From NCBI GenBank assembly GCA_963663165.1, contig OY760175.1, positions 5,344,001 to 5,408,000 of the forward strand: 64,000 bases of DNA, read 5' to 3'. The notes under the pieces were generated by a model. The model was not told where the DNA came from, ran no database searches, and saw only the letters and a program-made list of their open reading frames with translations. The stretch is from an uncultured Desulfospira sp. Lineage in GTDB: Bacteria > Desulfobacterota > Desulfobacteria > Desulfobacterales > Desulfobacteraceae. Position 1 is the stretch's first letter, and each line of letters opens with the position of its first letter. Below, one piece after another: positions 18,321 to 26,200 of the stretch. A program made the position numbers and the translations under genes.

Positions 18321-18488
18321 GTTTTACCTCCATTGTTGTTGTGGTTGTTTACGGGCTAAAGGTATGACATGGCCGATTGATGTCAATTAAATTTTCATTA
18401 TTTTTTTCATCTTTTCAAAAAAAGTAATGCAATTTGTACACAGGAGTTTCTGCCGGCTGGCCCCATTTACCGTACAGGTGATAATGGT

Positions 18489-18516
18489 GTAGGGGCAATT
18501 CATGAATTGCCCCTGC
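18489..18516. repeat. GTAG-type REP palindrome
   Basis: GTAGGGGCAATTCATGAATTGCCCCTGC. Confidence 0.7.
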
Positions 18517-18615
18517 GACCGCCCCAACAACACCGCAACATCTGGTCTCCATTTATCCCGGCATTAACGTCCGTGTTTTTTTTGCCGGCAGATGGCCTTG
18601 CCGGCCAGCCGGAAT

Positions 18616-19188
18616 CTATCCGTTGATGTCGGCTTTGTACATCAGGTCCTTGTCCATTTTATAGGTCCAGGGCAGTCCCTCAAGCTTCCATCCGCCGGCC
18701 CACCGTTTGCCGTAATAGACACTGGCTTTATTTTTGTTTTTGTCGCCTTCAAAGCCGCCCATGAGGTTGAATACCTTTGCCTCGTCAAAGCCGGCCTTGA
18801 TGGCTTCGTTACAGGCGGTGCAGCTTCGGTTGCCCGAACGGCATAAAATGATCAGGGTGTCTGTTTTGGGGTCGAACCGGCTGAGTAGGTCTTTGCCGAA
18901 ATTATCGTTCATGGCTTCGGTATACCCTTTTTCCCCCGCATTGGTGGTTAAAAAACGCAACGGGACATTGTATGCATTTTCCGGGTGCCCCACAAACTGG
19001 TATTCAGCCCGTGTGCGGCAATCGACCAGAAAGGTGTGCTCCGGGTCTTTTTGAACCATTTTAAACGCGTCTTCAGGAGTCAGGTCCCCCCCGAGATGAT
19101 CTTTGTTGGCCTTGTATTCATACCCGCCCGCAAAGGCCAGGCTAGTAAAAAACAACATGCCGGTCAGCAAATAAAAAATTTTTTTCAT
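18616..19188 (-). CDS. Exported rhodanese-domain sulfurtransferase
   Basis: Signal peptide (..SLAFA); LVDCRT..EY..GH; active-site loop CRSGNRS. Confidence 0.88.
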   Translation of the reverse strand: MKKIFYLLTGMLFFTSLAFAGGYEYKANKDHLGGDLTPEDAFKMVQKDPEHTFLVDCRTRAEYQFVGHPENAYNVPLRFLTTNAGEKGYTEAMNDNFGKDLLSRFDPKTDTLIILCRSGNRSCTACNEAIKAGFDEAKVFNLMGGFEGDKNKNKASVYYGKRWAGGWKLEGLPWTYKMDKDLMYKADING

Positions 19189-19245
19189 GTCCTTTCTCCT
19201 TTTTGAATTAGATTTTTGATACGGCGGCTCAACACAGCCGCCCCG

Positions 19246-20580
19246 CTATTGTTTCAGGATTTTTTCAGGAATCCTGTCTTTGGGCACAATAGTCTTTTGA
19301 TTGGCCTTTATTTCCTCCGGGGTCAGGTCCTTTGCCTGTAAAAACAATTCCGGGTTCCCATGGCAGCTGTTACAGGTTTCGGCCTGGCGTGTTTTCAATA
19401 TAATGTTATGGGGAGAGCTTCGTTTCCAGGTGGGAACAGCCGGAAAATTCTCCAATCCCTTGGGGATGTAAAATTTAAAGGTGTCCGGCACAACAGGGGC
19501 ATGCCGGACCACCACATATTCGTAAGGGGCTTTTTGTGTGGGCTCCGGGTTCAGGCCGATTTTAAACATCACATGGGTTTTCTGGCATTTGAAATAGGGC
19601 AGCCCTTTTTTATCCGTGCCCACATGACAGGAAAAGCAGCTTTTGGAGGCCTGGGAATGGCAAACCTGGCAGGCCAGTTTTTGGACATGCCCGGTATGAT
19701 ACGGGTTTTTGCTGTCCGGTTTGAGGACATCTTCATGGCACTGAATGCATTCCGGCTTCTGGGCAAGGGCATACCGGTCGGTGGCGGCATTGGCATGCAT
19801 CTCATTGGCGTTGTGGCAGTTCATGCAGGTCATTTCTTCGTCTTCAAAATGGGTGTCGGGCGCCAAATCCTCGGTGGTCCCGGTAAATTCACCATGGACC
19901 CGTCCTCCGTGGCAGGAGGCACAGGTGGTATCCATGGGCGGCTTCTTCTTAAAGTGGTGTTTGGATAAAAAACCGCCTTTGACATAGTCCGGCCGGGAGA
20001 TGTGGCATTGTCCGCAACTGCTGTGGCAGGTCCCGCAGTGCCGGTCCATGGATTCTTTGAGGACTTTTCTGGTGTCGGGGGCACAGCATTCCCCGCCGGC
20101 CCGGCTGAAGATGGCCTGAAACATGGGCCCCAGGGTATAATGCAGGCTGTTGGTCGCCGTTTCAACGATATCGCCGTGACATTCTCCGCACACCCGATCG
20201 GCATCCCGGATGGTCGGATCGGTGACCAGTCCCTTGTGGGCGGTCTGCCAGTTATCGTCATCCGGTAAGCCGCCGTGGCATTCCTGGCAGGGGATCTGGC
20301 CATGCTCGGTTTCCAGAAAGGCCGGATCCACATAAATCTTCTGGTACAGCTCCAACGGAGCCAGCGGGCCGCCTCACCCTTCGCCGGTGGTTTCGGAGCT
20401 TTGGCCTTTCCTGGGCTTGAGTTTTTCTACCTCCCAGCACAGGCGGATCAATTTTTTCAGGTTGGTATGGCATTGGATACACTGGCTGGAAGGCTCTTGC
20501 GAAAAAGAGGCCGGGGAAATTATCGCAGCGATGAAGCCAAACGCAAAAATCAAAGGGAGAATCTTCTTTTTGAAGCGCAT
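19246..20580 (-). CDS. Predicted 444-aa undecaheme cytochrome c selenoprotein (UGA at 20374-20376 read as Sec)
   Basis: ORFs 20374-20580 and 19246-20355 are in frame, joined by TGA-GGPLAP; 1+10 CxxCH motifs; only the upstream ORF has a signal peptide. Confidence 0.8.
20347..20363 (-). promoter_or_regulatory. SECIS-like hairpin
   Basis: TGGCTCC-GTT-GGAGCTG starting 10 nt after the UGA, G in the apical loop. Confidence 0.55.
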
Positions 20581-20730
20581 TCAAATCACCTTTTTTATAG
20601 AAACAATGTTGGGCTCTGGCTAAGTTACTTAGTACTTGACCAGTGGCCTGTCAAGGAAAAAACTTGGTCCTTGCCTTTCTGTGGCCTTCCTGGTAAATCC
20701 CAGGTTGGATTTATATTAAGGAAGGTGAAC

Positions 20731-21549
20731 ATGCAGTCAGGGCAGTCAAACGGTTCCGCGGTCTTTCATGCCCGGGAATACGGCACAGATCAAAATCGGT
20801 CACAACCCATTGAGCTGGTTGAGGAAAGCCCTCTGTTGATAACGGTTCAAGGTGGTAAATCCGTTTGTGTTATGAGAACGCCGGGCAACGAAATCAACCA
20901 TGCCGCAGGCTTTTGCCTGGCCGAAGGCATTGCCGGATCCCCTTCGGATTTTCAAACCATTGAGTATGACGGCAGAACAGATCCAAACCGCGTTACAGTT
21001 CGACTCACGCCGGGATGCCAATCAAGGGCACCTTCCCTCAGGGTCTGGGAGAACTTTCCCCCTCAGGACGGCGGCAGCCCGGACAAAGGGCAGTTGATCG
21101 GGCAATTTACCAAAGCCTTTGCTTTGCCCAGGGACGGGTTTCGTATTCATCCAGACCAGGTCTGCCAGTGCGTGGATTCCCTTTATGAGCGGCAGAGCAT
21201 TTACCCGAAGACCCGGGGAACCCATGCGGCCCTGGTGTTTGATAACCGGTTTGAAATTCTCGGGTTTGCTGAAGATGTGGGACGGCACAATGCCCTGGAC
21301 AAGGCCCTGGGAAGGGTATTGCTGGAAGGGGGCCTGGGCCGTGCCAAAATGGCCGTGATGTCTTCCAGAATCAGTTCGGCACTGGTCCTCAAAGCGGCCC
21401 GGGCCCGGCTGCCCATGCTGGCCAGTAAATCCTCACCAACGGCCATGGCCGTTGATATGGCAGCCGGGGTAAACATGACCCTGGCGTTTGTGACCGAAAA
21501 ATCAAAGCTTGTGGTTCTTTGCGGAGAACACCGGATTGTGGCGGGATAA
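20731..21549 (+). CDS. fdhD: FdhD-family sulfur carrier protein (lacks the CGxCG motif)
   Basis: EE.PL, MRTPG, GF.LAEG, THAA, EDVGRHNALDKALG; AAGGTG RBS before the ATG at 20731. Confidence 0.85.
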   Translation: MQSGQSNGSAVFHAREYGTDQNRSQPIELVEESPLLITVQGGKSVCVMRTPGNEINHAAGFCLAEGIAGSPSDFQTIEYDGRTDPNRVTVRLTPGCQSRAPSLRVWENFPPQDGGSPDKGQLIGQFTKAFALPRDGFRIHPDQVCQCVDSLYERQSIYPKTRGTHAALVFDNRFEILGFAEDVGRHNALDKALGRVLLEGGLGRAKMAVMSSRISSALVLKAARARLPMLASKSSPTAMAVDMAAGVNMTLAFVTEKSKLVVLCGEHRIVAG

Positions 21550-21740: not shown

Positions 21741-24700
21741 ATGAGACATGTTTTTTGGGGCACGGGCATTATCATACTGTTCGCATCGCTCGCAGCCGGC
21801 TTTTCATCCCGCTTCATATCCGGGGCCTTCGCCGTGGGTGAAATATCGCAACTGCCTGTTTCGGCAGAAAATATCAACTGGGGTATCCTGGCTTTGGCCG
21901 GGGTGGCACTGGTGGCTGCGGTTTACTGGAACCGCAGAATTTCCAAAGAAATCAAAGCGCGCCGGCAGGTGGAGAAAAACCTGGACGATGTAGCGGCTGA
22001 ATTAAGCAAGGTTCTGGAAAACGCCCAGGCCGGAATCCTTTTTTTACGGGGTGACAGAAGCGTTTATAAGTGCAATGAACGGCTGGCCAAAATCCTGGGG
22101 TATGAGAAGCTTGAGGACATGATGCCCATAACGGTCAGGGACATCCATCTGACCAAGGAACGGTTTGAAAATTTTGGCAAAAATTATTACGAGAAACTCC
22201 GGGATGAAACCGTTTATGTGGAGTATGAACTGTGCCGCAAAGACGGCAGTCCGGTCTGGTGTTCCCTTAAAGGCAAGGCCTTTGACGACAAACAGCCGGC
22301 GGATCTTGGCAAAGGGGTCATCTGGTTAATTGACGATATCAGCAATCGCAAGGCAGCCGAGCAGGTTGCCCAGGACCAGCTCATGTTCCAGGCAGCCCTG
22401 ATCAATACCATCCCCTATCCCATCTTTATTAAAGATATTCACAACCGGTACGTGGGCTGTAACAAAGCCTATGAAGACCTGTTCCAGACCACACGGGACC
22501 AGATTATCGGCAAAATGGTCCTTGATCTCGAACTTCTCCCCCTTGAAGTTAGGAAGACCCATCACGATGAAGATGCGGATCTGCTGCTCAAAGGCGGCAT
22601 GCTCCATCGAGAATTCCCTTATAATTATACGGATGGCCGGTGCCATCACGTCCTGTACCGGGTTTCCGCATTTGATCTTTCCGACGGCCGGCGGGCCGGG
22701 CTGATCGGTATTATCGTGGACATCACCGACCTTAAACAGGCCCAGGAAAAAGCCGAAGAGGCCACCCGGGCCAAATCGGATTTCCTGGCCAACATGAGCC
22801 ATGAAATCCGGACCCCCATGAATGCCATCATGGGGATGACCCATCTGGCCTTAAGGACCGAGCTCTCTGACAAGCAGCGCGATTATTTGGAAAAAATAGA
22901 CGGCTCAGCCAAGGCATTGCTCCACATTATCAATGATATTCTGGATTTTTCAAAAATTGAGGCCGGCCGTCTGGAGATGGAAAAGACCGACTTTTTTCTG
23001 GAGGACGTGCTGGATAATCTGGGCAACCTCATGCAGGCGAACACTGGGGAAAAGGGGATTGAACTGCTCTTTAAGGTGGCTTCCGAGATCCCTGTAAATC
23101 TGGTGGGCGATCCCCTGCGCTTAGGCCAGGTGCTGATCAATTTTACCAGCAACGCCGTCAAGTTCACGGAAAAAGGGGAAATCGTCGTATCTGTGGAGGA
23201 AGTGGAGCGGTCCTCAAAAACCACAAAACTTAAATTTTTAGTTTCAGATACCGGGATCGGGATTCCTGAAAAGAAGCTGGCCAAACTTTTCCATGCCTTT
23301 ACCCAGGCCGATTCTTCCACCACCCGAAAGCATGGCGGTACCGGCTTAGGCCTTGTTATCAGCCAGCGCCTGGCTCAGCTTATGGGCGGAGAGGTCGGGG
23401 TGGAAAGCACGCCGGGCAAGGGCAGTACCTTCTGGTTTACAGGGGTTTTCGGCCTTCAGGAGAATCCGGACAAAGAGATGCGCTTTCTGGCCGACGATTT
23501 TTACGGCATGCGGGTACTGGTGGTGGACGATAATCGGGTATCCTGTGTCATTTTAAGCGAAATGCTGACGGAAATGGGCCTGTCCCCGGAAATCGTTCAT
23601 ACCGGCGAAGAGGCCATCCGGGTGCTGGAGCAGGCCCCTGAAGATTTGCCTTTTGAGCTGGTTCTCATGGACTGGCGCATGCCGGGCATGGACGGGATTG
23701 AAACCTCTGTTAAAATACAAAATAGCGACCGGCTTCCCAAGACGCCAACGATTTTCATGGTTACGGGGTATGGCCGTGAGGAGGCCATGAAGCAGGCCCA
23801 GGATGCCCAATTGAGTGCATTCCTGGTCAAACCTGTCAACCGGTCGGTTCTGTTTGATACCATTGTCAATACCCTGGGATGTGCTGTGCCGGAAAAATCC
23901 AGAATTCACCGGACCATAGAGCCGGATCTGCCGGAAGTCGCCGCCATAAAAGGCGCCCGCCTCCTGCTGGCCGAAGATAATTTGATCAACCAGCAGGTGG
24001 CCCGGGAACTGCTGGAGCAGGCCGGATTTGTGGTCAGTGTGGCTGAAAACGGTCAGGAAGCCGTGGATATGGTGAAAACCGCATTGCAGGATGCGAAAAT
24101 AACGGGCAGTTTCGCTTACGACGCCATTCTCATGGATATCCAGATGCCGGTCATGGATGGGATCGCCGCCACCAGGGCCATTCGCAGCCTGAACGGGGTT
24201 GAAGCGCTGCCCATTATCGCCATGACCGCCCATGCCATGGCCGGAGACCGGGAAAAGTCCATTGAAGCCGGCATGGTGGACCATGTTGCCAAACCCATTG
24301 ATCCGGCCGAGCTTTATAACGCGCTGCTTAAATGGGTCAAGCCGGGTGCCGCTGCCAAGACGTCTCCCCCCGCACCTGCCCCTGAACCCGCACCGTTGCC
24401 TGGCGCCGGGCCGAAACCCGCACCTGCCCCCAAACCCCAAGCCTCTCCGGCACCCTCAAGCCGCAAGGATGATGAACTTCCCGATTTGCCGGGCTATGAT
24501 GTCAAAACCGCCCTGAACCGGGTCAGGGGGAATATCAAACTTTATATTTCCCTTCTGAACAGCCTGCGAACTGATTACATGGATGCGCCGGAAAAGCTGA
24601 TATCCCTGCTAGAAGCGGGGGCTGTTGAAGATGCGGAGCGACTGGCCCATACGGTTAAGGGGATTGCCGGAAATCTTGGCCATAATGAACTGCAACATGT

Positions 24701-25073
24701 CGCCTGTGAGGTGGAATACGGCATCCGGGATCAGGTTGAGGACATGTCCGGCCGCCTGTCCGCCTTTTCAGCGGTGCTGGCCATGGCCCTTGATGCCCTG
24801 AAACCGCTGGCCCAGAAGAAAGAGCCCCAAAAAAGGCCGGCTGTTCCCGATGACCAGGTGGATATCAGTGCCTTACGCGATGTCCTCGAAGGGATGCTGC
24901 CCTTTGTCCAGTCCCGGAAAATCATGGAATGCCGGGAGCGGATGTCGTCCCTTAAAGCCTTGCCATGGCCGTCCGGCATTTCGTCAAAACTGGAAGATTT
25001 GAACCGGTATCTGGGTAAATATAAATTCAAAGAGAGTGTGGAAATTATTGAAAGTTTACTGAAAACCATGTAG
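21741..25073 (+). CDS. Hybrid sensor histidine kinase (TM-PAS-PAS-HisKA-HATPase-REC-REC-HPt)
   Basis: [21 protein letters not shown], two REC domains, AHTVKG HPt. Confidence 0.95.
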
Positions 25074-25144
25074 TGTTTTTCCATCGGCCCTAATGTTAAA
25101 CCGGCCCCCTCTAACCGGGACTCAACCCATTCAAGGTAACGTCA

Positions 25145-26200
25145 ATGAACCCAGAAGAATCGTATATGCCCCAAGTTCTTATTGTTGACGATATTGAAGC
25201 CAATATTGATGTTTTGGTGGAAATCTTGTGTGAGGACTATGATCTCCGGGTGGCCACCAGCGGGGCCGATGCTTTAGAAGCCGTGGCCGACACCCGGCCC
25301 GAGCTGATTCTGCTGGACGTCATGATGCCTGAAATGAACGGGTATGAGGTGTGCAAGCGCCTGAAGTCCGATCCCAAAACCGCCAAGATCCCCATTATTT
25401 TCGTAACCGCCATGAACGAGGCCGTGGATGAGAGCAAAGGGCTTGAAATGGGGGCGGTGGACTACATCACAAAACCCATTGTGCCGTTCATCCTTCAGGC
25501 CAGGGTCCGCAACCATCTGGCCCTGGCCGACCAGCAGCGGGCCTGTGAGCGGACCGTGGAAGCACAGGTGGCGGAGATTGAGCAGGGCCAGACCGACTGC
25601 ATTCATATGCTGGGCAACGCCAGCCATTACAATGATGATGATACCGGGGTCCATATCTGGCGGATGGCGGCCTATTCCAAAGCCCTGGCCAAAGCCGTTC
25701 ACTGGTCGGTGGAAGACCAGGAACTGCTGGTTCTGGCCGCCGCCATGCATGATACCGGGAAAATCGGTATTCCGGATGCGGTCCTGAAAAAACCCGGCAG
25801 GCTTAATGACGAGGAATGGGCCATCATGCGGACCCATTCTGAAATCGGGTATAAGATTCTTTCCATCAGCCAGACCCCCGTGTTCCAGATGGCCGCCGCC
25901 ATTGCCTATTATCATCATGAGCGGTGGGACGGTAACGGATACCCCAAAGGCCTTAAGGGCGAAGATATCCCGGAGTCTGCCCGGATTGTGGCCATCGCCG
26001 ATGTGTTTGATGCCCTGACCTCTGCCCGCCCTTATAAAGACCCCTGGCCTGTGGACAAGGCCTATGCGGTTATTTGTGAAGAAAGCGGCCAGTTTGATCC
26101 CGGGCTTTCAGACGGCTTTCTTTCCATTCGTCCTGAAATCGAACGGCTGATGGCCTACTGGCGGGATCAGGAGAATGAGGACGATGTGTTTGGGGCTTGA
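25145..26200 (+). CDS. Response regulator with HD-GYP c-di-GMP phosphodiesterase domain
   Basis: REC (LLDVMMP); MHDTGK; HHERWDGNGYP; ADVFDAL. Confidence 0.93.
   Translation: MNPEESYMPQVLIVDDIEANIDVLVEILCEDYDLRVATSGADALEAVADTRPELILLDVMMPEMNGYEVCKRLKSDPKTAKIPIIFVTAMNEAVDESKGLEMGAVDYITKPIVPFILQARVRNHLALADQQRACERTVEAQVAEIEQGQTDCIHMLGNASHYNDDDTGVHIWRMAAYSKALAKAVHWSVEDQELLVLAAAMHDTGKIGIPDAVLKKPGRLNDEEWAIMRTHSEIGYKILSISQTPVFQMAAAIAYYHHERWDGNGYPKGLKGEDIPESARIVAIADVFDALTSARPYKDPWPVDKAYAVICEESGQFDPGLSDGFLSIRPEIERLMAYWRDQENEDDVFGA

Follow-up and report, generated by a model that had tools for sequence, protein, structure and literature searches.

The 64,000-nucleotide window analysed here, a stretch of the single 6.74-Mb contig of an uncultured Desulfospira sp., almost certainly carries on its minus strand, from position 20580 to 19246, one gene for an exported, selenocysteine (Sec)-containing cytochrome c with eleven hemes, as judged from comparative sequence analysis. 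Standard gene calling splits this gene at an in-frame TGA codon. A rhodanese gene follows directly downstream, and on balance we favour the whole explanation, in which a Sec-containing undecaheme cytochrome and the rhodanese form a sulfane-sulfur reductase fed by the latter. The more specific role of the cytochrome as a polysulfide or sulfane-sulfur reductase is assigned tentatively, by analogy with known systems.

The gene opens with an ATG at 20580, and a Shine-Dalgarno-like AAGGTGA, recognised by inspection of the sequence, lies 5 nt before it (20586-20592). The first 68 codons encode a basic and hydrophobic N-terminus, in which residues ~1-26 (20503-20580; MRFKKK, a hydrophobic core and ..SPASF) were judged by eye to form a putative signal peptide, followed by the first heme motif, CIQCH (residues 34-38, 20467-20481), the only one upstream of the predicted Sec codon. 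This frame terminates with ...SSETTGEG at the TGA at 20376-20374 and runs on past it as GGPLAPL into an open reading frame (ORF) listed at 19246-20355 (369 aa, listed start TTG), which holds ten CxxCH motifs and has neither a Shine-Dalgarno-like sequence nor a signal peptide. Read through up to the TAG stop at 19248-19246, the gene comprises 444 codons for a protein with 11 CxxCH motifs and with Sec predicted at residue 69, in the loop G-E-G-U-G-G; the junction peptide would be ...TTGEG-U-GGPLAPLELYQK. Heme motifs 2-11 (19360-20289) are located at residues 98-102, 131-135, 182-186, 189-193, 220-224, 252-256, 278-282, 304-308, 315-319 and 403-407, and the Pfam models Cytochrome_C7, Cytochrom_c3_2 and Paired_CXXCH_1 (PF14522, PF14537, PF09699) exceed their cut-offs in the cytochrome. 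A comparable hydrophobic N-terminal segment is present in all homologues, in some of them with a lipobox. Since the ten heme motifs of the 369-aa ORF require export whereas this ORF lacks a start context and a signal peptide of its own, both parts are best explained as one gene for an exported protein. The original prediction, which had proposed one periplasmic undecaheme selenoprotein of 444 aa, had described this ORF layout together with the missing signal peptide and missing clear ribosome-binding site of the second ORF; all of these details were found in the sequence, and the protein it proposed is supported by the conserved UGA, a covarying hairpin, the Sec machinery of the genome and Cys-type homologues.

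The TGA falls in one and the same alignment column at 35 of the 36 loci compared; the remaining locus lacks its N-terminus at a contig end. Besides the window, 34 loci have an in-frame TGA and a hairpin at the same place, and the TGA-carrying loci span Desulfobacterota, Thermodesulfovibrionia and Peptococcaceae metagenome-assembled genomes (MAGs), with identities as low as ~31%. When the DNA of seven named loci was compared (Desulfospira, Desulfobacter, Desulfobacterales, two Thermodesulfovibrionia/-ales and two Peptococcaceae), in six the frame meets a TGA at the homologous position and continues beyond it, as in GEG*GGPLAPLEL, GTG*GGTVTPLEL and TGG*GAPPPPLS; the match of the seventh, a Thermodesulfovibrionales locus (L008), is limited to residues 1-63. 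We also sampled 401 genomes of the phylum of the window, Desulfobacterota, at a match threshold of E <= 1e-20. A match was carried by 44 of them, with 47 matches in all, and exactly one TGA was present in 46 of the 47 (in one case along with a TAA). The sole stop-free match covers residues 165-443 only and is located at a contig end. Moreover, Cys stands at the Sec column in 14 of 43 aligned unsplit relatives (15 if P0198, which is one column off, is counted), mostly in the same glycine-rich context. The family thus shows the Sec/Cys alternation typical of selenoproteins, along with members without that residue, and the check proposed in the original prediction, whether homologues keep TGA or have Cys, came out positive on both counts.

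The genome encodes SelA, SelB, SelD and a tRNA-SeC with the anticodon tca, so that all of selA, selB, selC and selD, which the original prediction had suggested to look for, were found. The selD gene of this genome (L040, G000:C1:4858232-4862158) itself contains a TGA (KGAG-TGA-ASKLPPGDL, at locus position 1531), with a GC-rich hairpin downstream of it. TGA is an ordinary stop codon here: it ends 1014 of the 3007 stop-to-stop frames that stay open for 300 codons or more across all six frames. A test for co-occurrence of the cytochrome with SelA was uninformative because SelA is present in 371 of the 401 phylum genomes.

A hairpin resembling a bacterial selenocysteine insertion sequence (SECIS) was located at 20347-20363, where the original prediction had placed it. 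It starts 10 nt 3' of the UGA and has a 7-bp stem, UGGCUCC/GGAGCUG, with the loop GUU. Stem pairing and covariation were assessed by aligning 26 sequences from the UGA onwards. Around the GUU loop, a stem of eight pairs had 95.2% of its cells paired and compensatory two-sided changes in four of the eight pairs, and its covariation score was reached by none of 500 shuffles. In a control in which the partner was slid by 1-3 columns, pairing dropped to 33-47%. In some relatives the arms of the stem are swapped (GGCUCC..GGAGCC vs GGAGCC..GGCUCC), by which the peptide changes from VAPLEP to VEPLAP; as this alters the peptide but keeps the stem, it points to selection at the RNA level. At the same distance from the UGA, a different hairpin is present in three more distant clades.

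The original prediction had further claimed that standard annotation would miss such a protein, and this is borne out by the databases. A search with the read-through protein yielded 650 relatives. Among the best 120 of these, 119 are 347-399 aa long and cover 77-84% of the query, corresponding to the part after the TGA, which is what one would see if gene callers truncated all members of the family at one stop. The exception, P0118, has 556 aa and 96% coverage, and it bears a C-terminal extension with two more CxxCH motifs and a membrane anchor. A family profile built from 32 read-through proteins matched 2038 representative proteins at E <= 0.001 and 217 at E <= 1e-30; among the 150 profile matches listed, 41 start at profile positions 73-86 with their own residue 1-6 and are hence cut at the Sec site. 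A search with residues 28-110 for unsplit close relatives gave only three matches, all of them ORFs after the TGA. The family nearly always stands in databases as a truncated, apparently cytoplasmic 'hypothetical' cytochrome of 370 aa; with the gene recognised in full, many annotations are corrected and the bacterial selenoproteome grows. One source labels many of the 370-aa cytochrome fragments 'thiosulfate/3-mercaptopyruvate sulfurtransferase' although their Pfam domains are cytochrome only. This label was probably carried over from fused cytochrome-rhodanese forms.

The rhodanese gene of the window (18616-19188, minus strand) encodes a 190-aa single-domain protein with a signal-like N-terminus, which matches PF00581 with an E-value of 2.8e-14 (53.8 bits vs a cut-off of 22.2). 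Its loop C116-RSGNRS contains the catalytic Cys, with the codon at 18843-18841. A same-strand rhodanese gene lies directly downstream of the cytochrome gene in 31 of 35 loci. Three of the other four loci stop at contig edges; the fourth (L033, 2-1365) is the only complete locus without a rhodanese and has genes for a metallo-beta-lactamase-fold protein and a DUF1847 protein after the cytochrome. In the aligned partner rhodaneses the catalytic Cys and the hydrophobic N-terminus are kept in 19 of 19. Besides, two of nine long relatives scanned, P0129 (652 aa) and P0144 (715 aa), are fusions of the cytochrome with two C-terminal rhodanese domains each. P0144 has a Tyr (GEGY) at the position of Sec69. 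The possible function as a sulfur/selenium redox enzyme put forward in the original prediction is strengthened by this near-obligate partner and by the fusions. Cytochrome and rhodanese together constitute a candidate periplasmic sulfur-redox module for sulfate reducers and sulfur disproportionators.

Residue conservation was examined in the alignment of the 32 read-through proteins. All 11 heme motifs are invariant, motif 1 being kept in 32 of 32 and the final motif taking the form CxxxCH in four relatives. Outside the motifs, nine His are conserved as candidates for distal ligands (H93, at 20302-20304, H115, H147, H208, H244, H262, H295, H298 and H391), and Sec69 and G68 are invariant; no further conserved non-motif Cys, Met or Lys was present in this alignment. 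Eleven motifs and nine such His leave two hemes without a conserved distal His, and these two may be regarded as candidates for the catalytic centre. In addition, we compared 50 Sec/Cys-type sequences with 25 relatives lacking Sec/Cys, all sequences being mutually related. Among conserved columns the steepest drops from the former to the latter were those of G68 (88% to 24%) and R227 (92% to 28%). As Arg227 (19900-19902) tracks the presence of Sec/Cys, it is a candidate active-site partner of Sec69, with the reservation that this is a correlation among related sequences.

In the mechanism that we propose, SelB and tRNA-Sec would read the UGA of codon 69 as selenocysteine, under the direction of the hairpin that starts 10 nt after it. 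With the UGA read in this way, the full 444-aa chain would be exportable via its N-terminal signal and could acquire 11 covalent hemes in the periplasm, where the protein would act as a reductase for sulfane sulfur. The rhodanese would accept sulfur from polysulfide or a similar donor, bind it as a persulfide to its own Cys and pass it to the selenolate of Sec69 on the glycine-rich, presumably mobile loop, while Arg227 may help to hold the anionic substrate. Electrons from the heme chain would then cleave the Se-S bond, and sulfide would be released. In the Sud/Psr system of Wolinella succinogenes, a periplasmic rhodanese-type protein likewise passes polysulfide sulfur to a respiratory reductase. 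The Psr reductase is a molybdopterin enzyme and not a cytochrome, and it contains no selenium.

The original prediction had compared the locus with ExtKL and ExtH of Geobacter sulfurreducens. ExtKL (GSU2937-2936), a selenocytochrome with five hemes, was predicted in 2007 (PMC1914089), and it clusters with the rhodanese-like ExtH (PMC5877670). Under the name MccSep it was described in 2026 as a periplasmic tetrameric polysulfide reductase that is essential for sulfur respiration and has Sec325 beside a Cys239-ligated heme (PMC13510729); only with this work was a Sec-dependent multiheme cytochrome shown to be a respiratory sulfur enzyme. The undecaheme protein resembles MccSep/ExtKL (NF040886, PDB 9wt8) in being a periplasmic multiheme cytochrome c with one Sec, whose in-frame UGA splits the annotation and is closely followed by a SECIS-like hairpin. 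In both families the Sec is located in a glycine-containing loop, Sec-type and Cys-type members exist, a rhodanese-like gene stands in the cluster, and the distribution is mainly in Desulfobacterota and Nitrospirota. However, the protein studied here has 11 hemes and not five, its Sec69 follows just after heme 1 whereas Sec325 of MccSep lies in a C-terminal Ig-like domain, and the undecaheme family has no conserved non-motif Cys that would correspond to the conserved heme-ligating Cys239 of MccSep. In an NCBIfam scan no family reached its cut-off, and neither NF040886 nor TIGR04315, the model of the octaheme tetrathionate reductase family, gave a row at E <= 1; the best NF040886 match in the genome reached 33.5 bits against a cut-off of 250 and is at another locus. 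By these sequence comparisons the undecaheme protein is not a member of the MccSep/ExtKL family, and the comparison made in the original prediction is apt as an analogy but not as a statement of family membership. A review of 2026 (PMC13188914) tabulates three cytochrome-related selenoprotein families, namely ExtKL, the GSU2204 family and a form of octaheme tetrathionate reductase annotated in GenBank, and the undecaheme protein matches no model of these families. An 11-heme Sec cytochrome was not found in the literature searched, while a listing in the BSepDB family table or in the MccSep data supplements stays possible. The locus represents a second, architecturally unrelated selenium-multiheme family, which extends beyond the Desulfobacterota genomes sampled to Nitrospirota and Firmicutes MAGs and offers a natural experiment on the recruitment of selenium beside heme for S-S chemistry.

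An AlphaFold2 model computed on the family alignment had a mean predicted local distance difference test score (pLDDT) of 77 and a predicted template modelling score (pTM) of 0.77. Its sole notable match in Foldseek was 1sp3, the octaheme tetrathionate reductase of Shewanella oneidensis, with an E-value of 0.017 and a template modelling (TM) score of 0.24. An index-free aligner (VIA) aligned 255/436 residues with the same entry, over model residues 90-444, at a Z-score of 8.1, a value in the range which the aligner itself calls common, and a root-mean-square deviation of 5.2, while the next entry had a Z-score of 3.4. In a comparison of the family profile with the sequences of the PDB, 1sp3 likewise came first (E 3e-8), and MccSep (9wt8) was matched at E 0.033 with 16 bits in a generic heme region; a PDB search with the single protein gave no match at E <= 1. 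Heme motifs 3, 4, 6, 7, 8, 9 and 11 align with motifs of 1sp3. In contrast, 1sp3 has 8 hemes, and nothing in the aligned part corresponds to the N-terminal segment that bears Sec and hemes 1-2. The model thus suggests at best a distant relation to the octaheme tetrathionate reductase fold. To our knowledge, no rhodanese partnership has been described for octaheme tetrathionate reductase. Taking the comparisons together, we infer by analogy that the undecaheme cytochrome would work like MccSep/ExtKL on a different scaffold, one distantly similar to octaheme tetrathionate reductase.

TsdA and SoxAX, enzymes with His/Cys-ligated hemes, have been cited as mechanistic relatives of MccSep (PMC13510729). 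They place one chalcogen side chain at a heme for S-S chemistry, and in the undecaheme family Sec/Cys is the only conserved candidate for such a residue. Unlike the protein studied here, they have two hemes, and neither appears among the PDB matches of the family profile; heme ligation by Sec69 is hypothetical. A reading in which one of the two hemes lacking a conserved His has Sec69 as its distal axial ligand, giving a natural His/selenolate-ligated c-type heme, would fit the count of 11 hemes and nine conserved distal His with Sec/Cys as the only other conserved residue capable of ligation, but we consider it doubtful. In this reading Sec69 would swing off the iron and attack S-S bonds. If true, such a heme would be for selenium what the His/Cys hemes of TsdA, SoxAX and MccSep are for sulfur, and the family would be an independent invention of selenium-heme catalysis, with one residue doing the job of both Cys239 and Sec325 of MccSep. 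In the loop of relatives without Sec/Cys, some have His, Tyr or Met, and others have nothing suitable. The idea that Sec is a heme ligand which is universally replaced was rejected: the loop of several relatives without Sec/Cys contains no His, Met, Tyr or Cys.

Several observations weigh against our explanation of the locus, some of them concerning the decoding of the TGA and others the function. Neither Sec nor Cys is present in 25 of the 43 unsplit relatives, so that the scaffold exists also without Sec/Cys chemistry, and three relatives (P0118, P0164 and P0219) have Trp at the Sec column. In two of these the surroundings of the Trp are likewise G-x-G-W-x-G. The Trp codon of such relatives may be a genuine TGG or else a TGA translated under another code. 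Two carriers, G115 and G276, gave no match to SelA, with SelB present in both (among the 20 listed of the 30 genomes without a match). When 45 nt from the UGA of the window were folded alone, the hairpin was recovered with a minimum free energy of -10.7 kcal/mol and a z of 0.36 versus shuffles, and its support comes from covariation and not from folding energy. An Rfam scan of 19000-21000 at E <= 10 returned three chance-level rows and no SECIS family. The Trp residues, the unremarkable energy of the single hairpin and the splitting of the locus by gene callers would also suit a TGA that terminates translation or is read without selenium, the locus then being two genes, a pseudogene or a case of near-cognate Trp/Cys read-through. 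We find this hardly credible, as coding conservation crosses the TGA in 35 loci, the downstream ORF with its ten export-requiring motifs has no start context or signal peptide, and the covarying hairpin, the Sec/Cys alternation and the complete Sec machinery all speak for Sec. As to the function, the proposed role rests on gene neighbourhood and analogy, and no electron donor is encoded beside the cytochrome-rhodanese pair in the window. MccSep needs a heme-ligating Cys in addition to Sec; since the second residue is not conserved here, the chemistry would not be identical in detail. Moreover, octaheme tetrathionate reductase, the closest fold, acts on tetrathionate, nitrite and thiosulfate and not on polysulfide, according to PMC13510729.

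This last point leads to other functions of the same selenoprotein. Interconversion of thiosulfate and tetrathionate (or reduction of thiosulfate or sulfite) in the manner of octaheme tetrathionate reductase or TsdA, with the rhodanese handling the sulfane sulfur of thiosulfate, seems unlikely to us. Rhodaneses classically use thiosulfate, and 1sp3 is both the best structural match and the first profile match. The single chalcogen residue also resembles the heme-ligating Cys of TsdA (PMC13510729). Nevertheless, the structural Z-score is of a commonly seen size, TIGR04315 is not matched at E <= 1, the heme number differs, and the Sec segment is not part of the 1sp3 alignment; MccSep, so far the sole Sec multiheme cytochrome to be characterised, is described as inactive on thiosulfate and tetrathionate (PMC13510729). 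The enzyme might also run in the oxidative direction and deliver electrons from sulfide, polysulfide or the rhodanese persulfide into a periplasmic cytochrome pool, as might happen in sulfur disproportionation or when sulfide is detoxified. The carriers include lineages named as sulfur reducers or disproportionators (Desulfobacterota and Thermodesulfovibrionia), and the His/Cys-heme enzymes TsdA and SoxAX run oxidatively (PMC13510729), but no SoxYZ-like carrier or other oxidation gene was present among the neighbours scanned, and we judge this direction improbable. Very improbable, in our view, is a selenite or tellurite reductase or another selenium-handling protein in place of a sulfur enzyme. 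The cytochrome-rhodanese pair occurs widely across sulfate reducers and related lineages in diverse samples, where sulfur species far exceed selenium in abundance. MccSep does reduce selenite too but prefers polysulfide (PMC13510729), the ext cluster has been linked to the reduction of selenite and tellurite, and a report of a rhodanese carrying selenium stands in the reference list of the same paper (PMC5877670).

Just upstream of the cytochrome-rhodanese pair, a locus of a distant clade (L037, 2-1401) encodes an NrfB-like multiheme cytochrome and a cytochrome b561-type membrane protein, which are absent beside the pair of the window and are a candidate quinol-oxidising electron donor module. 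In L028 (1477-2834), the genes immediately upstream of the Sec-cytochrome gene are for cytochrome c maturation, of the ResB/CcsA type. The other neighbours vary across loci and comprise LysR or sigma-54 regulators.

In the window, the pair is flanked by dnaK and by a divergent fdhD, whose product serves formate dehydrogenase as a sulfur-transfer protein. The 424-aa ORF listed for fdhD on the plus strand (20275-21549) overlaps the cytochrome gene and is over-extended: only residues 182-421 match FdhD/NarQ, so that fdhD probably starts near 20800. A promoter and terminator scan of 18400-21000 gave counts that were not above those of shuffles. The 57-nt gap between the stop of the cytochrome gene and the start of the rhodanese gene contains a 7-bp inverted repeat at 19223-19242 (GGCGGCT-CAACAC-AGCCGCC on the plus strand), which has no T-run after it on the coding strand and could be an intercistronic mRNA element. 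Further along the plus strand (21741-26200) lies the gene of a hybrid PAS histidine kinase, which carries two receiver domains plus an Hpt domain; the gene after it encodes a receiver-HD-GYP protein. The hybrid kinase adjoins the pair in the closest relative, L002, as well; a regulatory link is conceivable.

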